64,000 bases of DNA, from positions 36 through 64,035 of the forward strand of contig CAYRIY010000006.1 in NCBI GenBank assembly GCA_964424335.1, read 5' to 3'. Positions 12,701-17,651 of this stretch are shown here, in pieces. The translations under genes were made by a program, and so were the position numbers. The notes beneath the pieces were generated by a model. The model saw only the letters and a list, made by a program, of their open reading frames with translations, ran no database searches and was not told where the DNA came from. Origin of the DNA: an uncultured Clostridia bacterium. Lineage in GTDB: Bacteria; Bacillota; Limnochordia; DTU080; RSA5. Within the stretch, counting starts at the first letter, position 1, and each line of letters opens with the position of its first letter.

Positions 12701-15496
12701 TCACCTCACGAGCCCGATGCGCGCCTTGGCCGCGTTGATCAGCCCTTCAGCCGTCTTGCGATCGCCGGTCAAGGCGGCGAGGCGATCGACATCCGTCTCA
12801 GCGACGTCTTTTAGATGCTTGACGCCGGACTTTGCAAGGCTCTTTGCCAAGTCGGCGTCGAGCGCGACGTCCTCCGACTCTTTGAGCGCCGCGACCGGCG
12901 TCTTCTCGATCACTTTGGCCTTGATGCTCTTCTCATCGATCGCCTGCGTCGTCTTTTCAAGGATCGATCCGGCGTCTTTTACGGCAACCCCGACCTTCTC
13001 GGAGATCTCCTCCGCCGACTTTTGCGCAAGATCGCCTTTGGTCGTGACGCCGATCTCTTCGAGCGCCTTCACCTGAGTCTCCGAGAGCCCAAGATCACGG
13101 GATTTGAGCGACCATGCCTCCTCGGGAACGACCTTTCTTGCCTCTTCGACCACGACTTTTGCCGCGAGGTCGTCGATGCCAAGCTCCTCCTTGAGGCGAG
13201 CCGGGTCTGCATTCGCCAGTTTTACGGCAGAGTCGATCCCCTTGTCCTCGAGAACGGCGCCAATCTTCGCATCGACGCCGGGAACTGCCTTGACGCTCGT
13301 CTTGAGGTCAACCGCCTTGTTGCGCGCCTCCTCGAGGATGGATACGGCCGTCTCACCCGAAAAGCCGACGTCGCGCAACACTCCGGTCCAGGCGGCGGCG
13401 GCGATGTCCACCTCGCCCGCTCCCAGTTGCCACAAGCGCATGCCGACATCTTGATCGATCCCGGTCACTTCGGCGCTCTGCAAGGAGACTGGGGTGTCGA
13501 GGGCTGTGTGATTTGGGACCATGACGATCGGCACATGCGCGCCGTTCTTGCCGAACTCGATGTAGGCGTACGGCTCATCGGATACCGTGCTGGGGACGTA
13601 ATCCGGACGAACCAGGATCCGCACGTCTCCGGGGTCCACGGCCGCGTTCGGCATCCTCGTCGCGGTCCAGTCCGCCCACGACACGAGCCACTCCTTGACG
13701 TGGGGCGGAGGGTCCGTCACCAGATCCCACGTTTGCACCTCTTCGGGGAGCCGATTTGGATTGATGTACGCTTCCATAACCGCCATCTTGTCGTACCACT
13801 CGTGCTCCATCCAGTCCGCCTTGGCAGTTTTGGCGGGCAGGAGTGTCACGCCGGTTTGTGTGCTGACCTCTTTCTCCTGGGGAATGAGTTGAAAGAGCAC
13901 CCGCTCGCGCGCTCCTTCACGTAGATCCACAATCCTTGACGCAGTGCGAAAGAACTTCGATTGAACGGAGACTTTGTACGTTCCAGGTTCGAGGGAATCG
14001 ATGATCGACCGGGCAAACCGCTTTCCCGTCGTAATCTGCATCACGCTTCCGGGGATGGACATGGTCCCCTCGTAGGTGTTTCCGACCTCGTCGGTCGCCG
14101 TTACCTTTATGCCTCGGGCGAGCGCAGCTTGCTCGGTTTTCCCGAGGAAGCTGAGAAGTGCGTGGATGTTCGTCCGGATCCTTAATCCTCCGCTTTCTTC
14201 GGCAAGCGCGCCGCTTTCATCAGCAGGGGCTCCGCGTCCTTCGGCAAGCGCGAGGTCGACCTCGATCGCGCCCGTTGCAACCGACTCAGGCTCGTCGCGG
14301 AGAAGTTCGAGTACTTCCTGCGGGGGGCCGGACAGACGCGTCGCCTCGTGCCTCATAAAGAAGACGTAATCACTCAATCCCGGCAAGTGGTAGATGACGA
14401 TCGGCGGCGGGTCGTTCACGTCGATCGGATCGATGTACGAAGCGATGTGAACCCACGCCCTAAGAAAGGTAGGATCGCCCTCGAGCTCGATTTGCCTTTG
14501 AAACCGATCACGCCTAAAAAAGGCGGCGACGTCGAACTCGTTGTGCCCGACGGGAAGAAACCCGGCCGGCGGCAGGTATCGAAACCGAGCGGCGGCGTCC
14601 ATGGACTTAAGTCCCGTCTCACGCTCAACCAACCAGTCGATCTGATCTTGAAACTGTAAAAAGAGCGCCTCCGCAACCGCTTTACGTTGATCGGACGCAA
14701 AAGAGAGCCACTCCGAAGCGGGAAACGGCGCAGATACCCTCCTGCGTACGGACCATGCATCGATGAACTGAATGCCCCCGTCCGACCAGTAAAGGAGCGC
14801 AAGGGGCACATCGCAAGGATCCAGGTCCGGCGCCGCCTTCGACAATCGATCTCCTCCGGGGCCTTCCGGCGGCACGCGGTAAGAGGCAAGCAACGCTTCC
14901 GTTCCAAAGCAGTGATGTGCGAGTCGATTCCTAAGCGTGCCCGGAGCGCCCACCCCGCCGGGAAGCTGCAGCGGCACGACGCGAAACCGCACCCCGGCGA
15001 CCGAGTACCGGCTTGCGCATCCCGTCACCCTCCCCCCGTAGTCAAAGCCGCTCATGGGCGCCCGCCCCTCAAAGCCGGAGACCGGCGTGGCCACGAGGAT
15101 GTATGCGCCCGAGCCTGTGCCGATCGTGACGGACGTCGCCCCCTCACAGGGCCCAAAGAGGCCGGCGTCGGCCGAAACGGTCTCCTCGGGCGCCACCAAT
15201 TCCACGTCTTGATCTTGGCCGAGTGCGAGCGTCTGACCGAGCCCGTTGATGGCGGTTCCGGCCCGGACCTTGAGGACGACTCCTGGCCTTGCGTCCGAGG
15301 AGAGTCGCTGGGCCGTTTCGGTTACTTCAAATCCGGCAACGATGCCGGAACCGATGCCAAGCCCGAGCCGCTCGCGCGCTTGCCTGCCCGCGGCCTGCTC
15401 CGTTTGCAAATCCTCCGCGGTGAGCCTCCTGCCGTTAAAGAAGTGGACGTGACGGATGCCGCCTTCCAAAATGGGTTCGAGCAACCGCTTTGTCAT
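12701..15496 (-). CDS. eCIS fibre/baseplate-associated protein with a CarboxypepD_reg-like beta-sandwich and C-terminal helix-hairpin-helix-like repeats
   Basis: N-terminal motif HFFNGRRLTAEDLQTEQAAGRQARERLGLG is paralogous to the N-terminus of the next gene. TDEVGNTYEGTMSIPGS...LEPGTYKVSVQSKFF resembles a carboxypeptidase regulatory-like domain. There are three C-terminal roughly 35-aa repeats of the L..LGI..L..K...AG form. Confidence 0.45.
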   Translation of the reverse strand: MTKRLLEPILEGGIRHVHFFNGRRLTAEDLQTEQAAGRQARERLGLGIGSGIVAGFEVTETAQRLSSDARPGVVLKVRAGTAINGLGQTLALGQDQDVELVAPEETVSADAGLFGPCEGATSVTIGTGSGAYILVATPVSGFEGRAPMSGFDYGGRVTGCASRYSVAGVRFRVVPLQLPGGVGAPGTLRNRLAHHCFGTEALLASYRVPPEGPGGDRLSKAAPDLDPCDVPLALLYWSDGGIQFIDAWSVRRRVSAPFPASEWLSFASDQRKAVAEALFLQFQDQIDWLVERETGLKSMDAAARFRYLPPAGFLPVGHNEFDVAAFFRRDRFQRQIELEGDPTFLRAWVHIASYIDPIDVNDPPPIVIYHLPGLSDYVFFMRHEATRLSGPPQEVLELLRDEPESVATGAIEVDLALAEGRGAPADESGALAEESGGLRIRTNIHALLSFLGKTEQAALARGIKVTATDEVGNTYEGTMSIPGSVMQITTGKRFARSIIDSLEPGTYKVSVQSKFFRTASRIVDLREGARERVLFQLIPQEKEVSTQTGVTLLPAKTAKADWMEHEWYDKMAVMEAYINPNRLPEEVQTWDLVTDPPPHVKEWLVSWADWTATRMPNAAVDPGDVRILVRPDYVPSTVSDEPYAYIEFGKNGAHVPIVMVPNHTALDTPVSLQSAEVTGIDQDVGMRLWQLGAGEVDIAAAAWTGVLRDVGFSGETAVSILEEARNKAVDLKTSVKAVPGVDAKIGAVLEDKGIDSAVKLANADPARLKEELGIDDLAAKVVVEEARKVVPEEAWSLKSRDLGLSETQVKALEEIGVTTKGDLAQKSAEEISEKVGVAVKDAGSILEKTTQAIDEKSIKAKVIEKTPVAALKESEDVALDADLAKSLAKSGVKHLKDVAETDVDRLAALTGDRKTAEGLINAAKARIGLVR

Positions 15497-17651: not shown

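Follow-up and report, generated by a model that had tools for sequence, protein, structure and literature searches.

What does a contractile injection system make of two adjacent fiber-like genes whose products begin alike and end differently? The question is raised by a 64-kb window (the whole stretch of 64,000 nucleotides analyzed here, positions 36 to 64,035 of contig CAYRIY010000006.1 in assembly GCA_964424335.1) from an uncultured Clostridia bacterium, the minus strand of which encodes in full the operon of an extracellular contractile injection system (eCIS). Between the gene for a Tail_P2_I/Cis12-like baseplate wedge protein and the ATPase side of this operon, the position expected for the tail-fiber genes of a contractile injection system (CIS), lie the minus-strand open reading frames (ORFs) ORF-A (15531..17618; 695 amino acids [aa]) and ORF-B (12701..15496; 931 aa). 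A preliminary description of the sequence proposed that the two share an N-terminal baseplate-attachment domain, that ORF-B ends in helix-hairpin-helix (HhH) repeats of a kind that usually binds nucleic acids or polyanions and is unusual for a tail fiber, and that the pair might provide two alternative or combined targeting specificities. The reading that we favor, with a probability of roughly 0.7, is that ORF-A and ORF-B are paralogous eCIS fiber proteins of the trimeric, baseplate-peripheral shoulder class typified by TssK, Cis19, and Alg19, in which ORF-A is the main fiber and ORF-B a structural protein carrying an HhH arm.

The common origin of the two N termini emerges from profile comparison. 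Full-length BLASTP finds no N-terminal match between ORF-A and ORF-B, whose pairwise identity is about 25%, and a Smith-Waterman alignment of their first 120 aa scores 44, a value that 11 of 2000 shuffles reach. When family profiles (120 sequences for ORF-A and 21 for ORF-B) are compared with hhalign, residues 17-90 of ORF-A align with residues 15-97 of ORF-B over 73 columns (probability of 96.4%, E of 1.2e-9), and the reversed-profile control yields a probability of 0.2%. Both proteins also match the start of the curated NCBIfam model NF053767 (CIS13_fam), ORF-A at profile positions 4-76 (47.2 bits, E of 1.9e-12) and ORF-B at positions 8-90 (19.6 bits, E of 4.5e-4). Because these whole-protein scores fall far short of the equivalog cutoff of this 392-position model (370 bits), ORF-A and ORF-B, as judged by their sequences, have one domain in common with CIS13_fam and are not members of that family. 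The shared domain spans residues 17-92 of ORF-A (17343..17570, minus strand) and residues 15-99 of ORF-B (15200..15454, minus strand), and it consists of one strand, a long helix, and a six-stranded beta unit that occur in identical order in the predicted structures of both proteins. The paralogy of the N termini first suggested by a recurring residue pattern is thereby borne out, but in hhalign global mode no confident alignment extends past the N-terminal 75 to 95 or so residues, and the likeness of the remaining cores consists of secondary-structure order and a common match to Cis19. ORF-A and ORF-B are most likely ancient paralogues.

Structure comparison places this domain among the shoulder-type baseplate proteins. 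Single-sequence phmmer searches against the PDB returned nothing significant for either protein, and neither matches Pfam TssK. With the AlphaFold2 (AF2) models as Foldseek queries (predicted local distance difference test [pLDDT] of 83.9 on average for ORF-A and 73.7 for ORF-B), the top matches of ORF-A are the Anabaena Cis19 chains 7b5h_AA, 7b5h_AB, and 7b5h_AC (probability of 0.85-0.91), followed by TssK (5y0e; probability of 0.75-0.80 over about 385 columns) and by phage tail fibers and receptor-binding proteins (RBPs), and ORF-B matches 7b5h_AA with a probability of 0.98 over 221 columns. Searched against PDB sequences, the ORF-A family profile aligns at its positions 29-95 (approximately ORF-A residues 27-92) with residues 19-85 of All3314, i.e., Cis19 (E of 5e-4), and the next match (E of 0.045) covers residues 15-79 of a 1443-aa protein in entry 9wt0, which we take, from its length and its three chains, to be Alg19 of AlgoCIS. 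The ORF-B profile has no direct link to solved shoulder proteins in the same search and is connected to them by way of its hhalign match to ORF-A. By analogy with these systems, in which docking of the shoulder on Cis12 or TssG loops has been solved, the shared N terminus is most likely the start of a TssK/Cis19/Alg19-like shoulder, and we infer that it acts as a baseplate-docking element, in agreement with the attachment domain that had been proposed.

Both reading frames are present on the minus strand where the preliminary description placed them (15531-17651 and 12701-15496), with a probable amendment to the start of ORF-A. The GTG codon at 17651, which would give a product of 706 aa, overlaps the stop codon of the Cis12-like gene by 4 nucleotides (nt); since the ATG at 17618 is preceded at 9 nt by a Shine-Dalgarno sequence (GGGAG) and agrees with the N termini of a database twin (P0022) and of the family (MS.F...), it is probably the true start. 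From this codon, ORF-A divides into three parts. Residues 1-310 (16689..17618, minus strand; pLDDT mostly 85-97) constitute a conserved core of shoulder and helical neck that is kept across more than 500 homologues and aligns to TssK over the span given above. Residues 311-430 (16329..16688, minus strand) contain the tail-fiber motifs H..L.GL..DDHPQY, AGGDL.G.YP.P, and VLTW..W (residues 320-335, 381-394, and 411-423), which are 70-95% conserved in 64 homologues; the phage receptor-binding-like motifs noticed earlier are thus real features of the family and stand beside the fiber and RBP matches of the fold. Residues 431-695 (15534..16328, minus strand; pLDDT of 74-98) form a variable, beta-sandwich-rich distal tip that has no Pfam match even at an E of ≤10 and weakly resembles CopC/PcoC and P19-like sandwiches, and in its place relatives carry collagen, ComEA-type HhH, and other modules.

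ORF-B is a second, paralogous shoulder-type protein, whose family includes at least 1005 cluster representatives (50% identity) at an E of ≤1e-30. Its conserved core (residues 1-385; 14342..15496, minus strand) is followed by a long C-terminal extension made up of an alpha/beta region, a beta-sandwich, and four tandem, acidic (HhH)2-type units. The sandwich (residues 463-537; 13886..14110, minus strand) is transthyretin/CarboxypepD_reg/PEGA-like. By sequence, the CarboxypepD_reg-like domain announced in the preliminary description is subthreshold (PF13620 at about residues 499-537, 21.3 bits against a cutoff of 32.3, E of 3.5e-4), but it is supported by fold matches to an RG-lyase domain, carboxypeptidase D domain II, and 6hif_Y and by homologous tips with clear PF13620 or PEGA matches down to an E of 5e-60. 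No PHROGs fiber family is matched by either protein, and the one match of ORF-B in that database is to a DNA-polymerase HhH.

How general this arrangement is can be judged from 80 loci that we recovered by scanning species-representative genomes with the ORF-B family profile. They come from at least 10 phyla, including Acidobacteriota, Chloroflexota, Myxococcota, Nitrospirota, Gemmatimonadota, Verrucomicrobiota, and Proteobacteria, and the nearest genomes are metagenome-assembled genomes of Nitrospirota, Gemmatimonadota, Roseomonas, and Clostridia, at no more than 44% identity. In each of the 76 loci whose upstream sequence is long enough, the gene directly ahead of the B-like one is A-like, and the A-like gene in turn always directly follows a Tail_P2_I gene. 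All five genes of the block Tail_P2_I>A>B>C>ATPase (the window itself reads Cis12>A>B>C>ATPase) are present in 53 loci, and partial loci never contradict this order. The distal parts are far more labile. Variable tips are present on 71 of the 76 A-like proteins, 25 of these tips being collagen triple helices, which would fit trimeric proteins, and 4 being of the ComEA-type HhH kind. Among B-like proteins, 52 of 82 consist of the core alone (the 385 residues plus about 50 aa, for a total of about 430 aa) and have no distal domain, and the extended ones bear CarboxypepD_reg, PEGA, Ig/fn3, sugar-binding (Wzt_C and galactose-binding), solute-binding (SBP), or HhH modules. Because most B relatives manage without a distal domain, the role of B is probably structural in the first place and adhesive in the second, with an optional tip.

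These loci can be set against a recent catalogue of eCIS fibers (Nachmias et al. 2026, PMC12923769). It defines five types of N-terminal anchor, of which eBAP3, eBAP4 (the Cis19 N terminus), and eBAP5 (DUF6519) have a shoulder substructure in common; eBAP3 fibers are described as TssK-like and are found in Tail_P2_I loci; and 23.4% of eCIS loci encode several fibers. Its genus lists assign loci of Myxococcus, Corallococcus, Sphingomonas, Roseomonas, and Pseudoxanthomonas to eBAP3, and the genera of our A/B loci overlap those so labeled. HHH_5 and HHH_3 domains on eCIS fibers appear in its accessible text only as rows of a raw table. Two other anchor types were considered and rejected: eBAP5, as the N termini of ORF-A and ORF-B have no Pfam DUF6519 match even at an E of ≤10, and the Afp13/Pvc13 type (eBAP1, with an adenovirus-like shaft), as there is no match to Adeno_shaft or related Pfam families and the N-terminal fold is of the shoulder type.

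Combining these observations, we propose an arrangement of the pair. By analogy with the solved TssG-TssK complex and with AlgoCIS, where the C-terminal loop of Alg12 is clamped by three central helices of the Alg19 shoulder (PMC13314943), three copies of the shared N-terminal element would form a socket around a loop of the wedge protein (Tail_P2_I/Cis12-like) whose gene lies just upstream. Because A and B are always found together, as Cis12>A>B, each wedge would most likely hold one A trimer and one B trimer, seated on different Cis12 loops. Such a pair would be a heterotypic version of the baseplate seen in the type VI secretion system (T6SS), in which two TssG loops each insert into the cavity between the N termini of one TssK trimer, so that two trimers occupy each wedge (PMC6300606). 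A, with its conserved tail-fiber motifs and a tip that is nearly always present and rapidly swapped, would be the principal receptor-binding fiber, and B would be a structural or stabilizing shoulder protein, the extension of which was presumably gained in this clade.

The alternative closest to what had first been suggested, that A and B are independent and equivalent receptor-binding fibers giving two alternative or combined specificities, each tip with its own receptor, strikes us as unlikely. The distal domains of ORF-A and ORF-B are indeed distinct, the B tips of relatives are adhesin-like (the sugar-binding, solute-binding, Ig/fn3, CarboxypepD_reg, and PEGA modules listed above), and multifiber eCIS loci are known at the frequency already cited. 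Yet the pair is obligate rather than the product of occasional duplication, the conserved role of B cannot be receptor binding when so many of its relatives are tipless, and the terminal module of ORF-B is an acidic HhH array and not a known lectin or Ig adhesin. Two specificities are therefore too simple an account of a pair whose A-then-B order is invariant.

What, then, might the HhH array do? Its fold is genuine. Residues 670-931 of ORF-B (12704..13489, minus strand) are modeled as all helical (pLDDT of 86-92), score 36 bits against Pfam HHH_5 (PF14520; gathering threshold of 27), and match the RadA N-terminal, NusA C-terminal-repeat, and topoisomerase HhH models of NCBIfam. Structurally, they match RadA-N (root mean square deviation of 1.4 Å over 57 columns; probability of 1.0), NusA (probability of 0.96), and topoisomerase V. 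Whereas three HhH-like repeats had been counted, fold and unit alignment resolve four (HhH)2 units of about 58 residues each (670-729, 733-791, 795-854, and 869-928). The array carries a net charge of -10 (isoelectric point [pI] of 4.9), and its eight hairpins read GID, GFS, GVD, GID, GLS, GVA, ALD, and TGD, none of which is a canonical G-h-G. The acidic repeats AR1 and AR2 of NusA have in common with the ORF-B units both this acidic character and G-h-D/S hairpins. NusA acidic repeats bind proteins, whereas ComEA is a DNA receptor. As a side observation, positions 335-396 of CIS12_fam weakly match ORF-B residues 711-772, within the first HhH units (E of 0.0035), which hints, from sequence similarity, at a helical module of this kind in some Cis12 proteins.

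HhH modules of two kinds recur in the two families, one on each paralogue. Arrays of the ORF-B type, one to four units long, are restricted to B-like proteins, being present in 8 of 77 loci and on 84 of the 159 best representatives of the B family, and they are acidic overall (median of -3.2 per 100 aa), with G-h-G hairpins numbering 50 in 238 units. The ComEA type, a single canonical (HhH)2 that always forms the extreme C terminus and has a G-h-G hairpin in 31 of 44 cases, is confined within these two families to A-like proteins and is present on 39 of the 120 homologues closest to ORF-A and in 4 of 77 loci; neither ORF-A nor ORF-B matches the corresponding ComEA-like HHH_3 (PF12836). These frequencies contradict the notion that HhH domains are unusual on such fibers. 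Our literature search found no paper linking HhH to contractile injection systems. No locus of the 77 carries HhH modules on both A and B, but about 0.4 would be expected by chance, such that there is no evidence of mutual exclusivity. Within the C-terminal 170 or so aa of the ORF-A homologues P0035, P0039, P0043, P0051, P0067, P0075, P0094, and P0101, a conserved module of no assigned family, RAIDAEFLR..LPTGDRP..G.QGG.FESW, lies ahead of the ComEA-type tip, and a related CIS locus (L066, 17958-19505, plus strand) encodes a 515-aa protein, neither A-like nor B-like, with a ComEA-type (HhH)2 at its C-terminal end. A query with the HhH region had a single match, P0146 (274 aa; positions 10001-10825 of locus L083, ENA contig_98637), which looked like a free-standing HhH protein but was rejected as such: the contig represents a locus of this same type and is frameshift ridden, with short broken ORFs, and P0146, whose gene neighbors eCIS_core, most likely corresponds to a piece of a B-like gene from an assembly rich in frameshifts.

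We regard as distinctly unlikely the possibility that the ORF-B array binds nucleic acids or polyanions, whether tethering particles to extracellular DNA in a biofilm or on a target or holding an unreleased CIS to the nucleoid. The HhH fold, with its above-cutoff HHH_5 score and its RadA-N and topoisomerase V matches, speaks for such a function, as do the ComEA-type A fibers of other loci with their mostly canonical hairpins. Against it stand the acidity of the array and its lack of any G-h-G hairpin, the same two tendencies across the family arrays, and the fact that its closest analogues, the NusA repeats, are protein binders; the cargo genes (DUF4157/eCIS_core), like the AAA+ ATPase, indicate a released eCIS. 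DNA or polyanion binding by ORF-B is therefore unlikely on the strength of its residues, and we suggest, with low confidence, that the array serves as a flexible arm for binding proteins or surfaces, or as a spacer. A broader version, in which HhH modules are an unrecognized class of distal binding domain on CIS fibers and the ComEA-type A tips, and possibly the B arrays, engage extracellular DNA or another phosphate-rich polymer, seems to us similarly doubtful.

Less probable still is that ORF-B (or ORF-A) anchors a cell-bound CIS to a membrane or the envelope in the manner of T6SS TssK or of Anabaena Cis13 (All3316), a short, trimeric, fiber-like protein whose C-terminal transmembrane helix fastens the CIS to thylakoids. 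The resemblance of both N termini to the Cis13 family profile and of ORF-A to TssK would fit this role. However, neither protein has a transmembrane-like segment (maximum KD19 of about 1.0), only about 80 of the 392 CIS13_fam positions are matched, the tips of the A family are collagen, lectin, or fiber-like, and Alg19, which among solved analogues is the closest, is a fiber that binds cells from outside. Finally, that unrelated proteins resemble each other at their N termini by chance or through composition, as the silent BLASTP comparison and low identity might suggest, is refuted by the profile-profile alignment with its negative reversed control and by the matches of both proteins to the same positions of an independently curated model, and it is further contradicted by their common structural match to Cis19 and the same secondary-structure order.

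Several points weigh against the paired-shoulder interpretation that we prefer. The Foldseek E values are modest (1e-3 to 8e-3), and the template-modeling (TM) scores are low, the models being multidomain. ORF-B joins Cis19 by structure only and ORF-A by profile only, and confident homology between the two covers about 75 residues. Trimerization of ORF-A and ORF-B, their contact with Cis12, and the stoichiometry of A and B would follow by analogy with solved systems, and the assignment to eBAP3 is indirect, by way of genus labels. With respect to the arm, its suggested function is drawn from sequence features, and DNA binding occurs in some HhH proteins whose overall charge is acidic; the case against DNA binding accordingly leans on the missing G-h-G hairpins, net charge alone being a weak argument.

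The remaining genes complete the eCIS operon. In operon order on the minus strand, it begins with two sheath genes (32473-34401 and 28464-31667), followed by gp19-type tube genes and a CIS_tube protein, gpD-like and VgrG-like (Phage_base_V) genes, a gp25 gene, and Baseplate_J (20608-22824), which lies upstream of the wedge gene. The product of the second sheath gene is unusually large (1067 aa), with its sheath domains confined to the C-terminal third. The wedge protein (17648..20548, minus strand; 966 aa), of the TssG/gp7 class, matches Pfam Tail_P2_I (E of 2.4e-9) and the NCBIfam models CIS12_fam (E of 2e-41) and tail_TIGR02242 (E of 1e-22); in addition, its residues 722-778 form a Glyco_hydro_42-like stretch (E of 7.5e-8), where the homologues in two surveyed loci (L001 and L084) match faintly. 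Between ORF-B and the AAA+ ATPase gene lies ORF-C (10426..12693, minus strand; 755 aa), which has no match in Pfam, NCBIfam, or PHROGs, is retained at this position in nearly all related loci, and may be a tape-measure (Afp14) analogue or another CIS component. The Afp15/Cis15-like AAA+ ATPase itself (8115..10328, minus strand; Pfam AAA, E of 1e-24) is a marker of eCIS-type operons, and it is followed by a 1291-aa eCIS_core/DUF4157 protein (4454-8329, minus strand) that is likely a cargo or effector. The product of the next gene (1056-3614, minus strand; 852 aa) combines two GT2 glycosyltransferase domains with a methyltransferase domain.

Both a shared shoulder domain and the presence of several shoulder-type fibers on a TssG-like wedge are already in the 2026 literature, and our central observation opens no new question because the concept has been published. 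The invariable pairing of the paralogues and the HhH modules at their tips are details of modest interest. The Cis12>A>B>C>ATPase block suggests a large eCIS lineage with two diverged TssK-like trimers per wedge, an arrangement that bears on how the baseplate senses its target, on what triggers firing, and on the choice of protein to re-engineer for retargeting. The HhH modules are frequent yet uninterpreted distal modules, and the identity of their ligand would extend the catalogue of eCIS receptors; should they prove to bind extracellular DNA or a phosphate-rich polymer, a nonprotein, nonglycan class of receptor would be added to eCIS targeting.

Among known systems, Anabaena Cis13 is related to the window proteins through its N-terminal baseplate-binding domain, the first 80 to 90 or so profile positions matching both ORF-A and ORF-B, and is set apart from them by its membrane helix and by their scores of 47 and 20 bits against the family cutoff. 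The eBAP3 fibers likewise have a shoulder-like, TssK-like N-terminal anchor of about 200 aa and a Tail_P2_I adaptor in the locus (PMC12923769), although the accessible text of that catalogue describes neither an obligate A-then-B pair of paralogues nor an HhH-tip interpretation.

T6SS TssK likewise forms a shoulder-plus-neck trimer (PDB 5y0e), and together with TssG it sets the precedent for two shoulder trimers per wedge (PMC6300606); the core-only B-like proteins are TssK sized. TssK differs in being one protein used twice and linked to a membrane complex, whereas the paralogues of the window are two and diverged, and the eCIS operon that encodes them includes cargo and AAA+ ATPase genes but no T6SS membrane-complex genes. 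The HhH modules have relatives in NusA, RadA, and ComEA, from which the ORF-B units differ in their fourfold tandem arrangement at the distal end of a protein of an extracellular machine; the canonical G-I-G ComEA type is found on the other paralogue, A, in other loci and not in this window.

The nearest solved counterparts are Cis19 (PDB 7b5h) and Alg19 (PDB 9wt0) of the eBAP4 class. Six trimers of Cis19 form a "crown" on the baseplate of the Anabaena tCIS, and their flexible distal parts resemble small tail fibers (PMC8894136). The shoulder of Alg19 resembles TssK and the RBPs of lactococcal phages, and the Alg19 fiber bridges adjacent wedges, is required for cell binding, and stabilizes the prefiring state (PMC13314943). 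Like the window proteins as we picture them, both are trimeric and baseplate peripheral, with a TssK-like N-terminal shoulder and flexible, target-binding distal domains; docking on the Cis12 loop is a solved feature of Alg19, and its counterpart in ORF-A and ORF-B is one that we infer. Cis19 and Alg19 are, however, single proteins of about 1450 aa with a bulky shaft and PKD/Ig chains, encoded in Afp12-type baseplate loci, whereas the paralogues of the window, two in number and shorter (695 and 931 aa), are encoded downstream of a protein of the Tail_P2_I type and have tips of their own: beta-sandwiches on ORF-A and a CarboxypepD-like sandwich followed by an HhH array on ORF-B.

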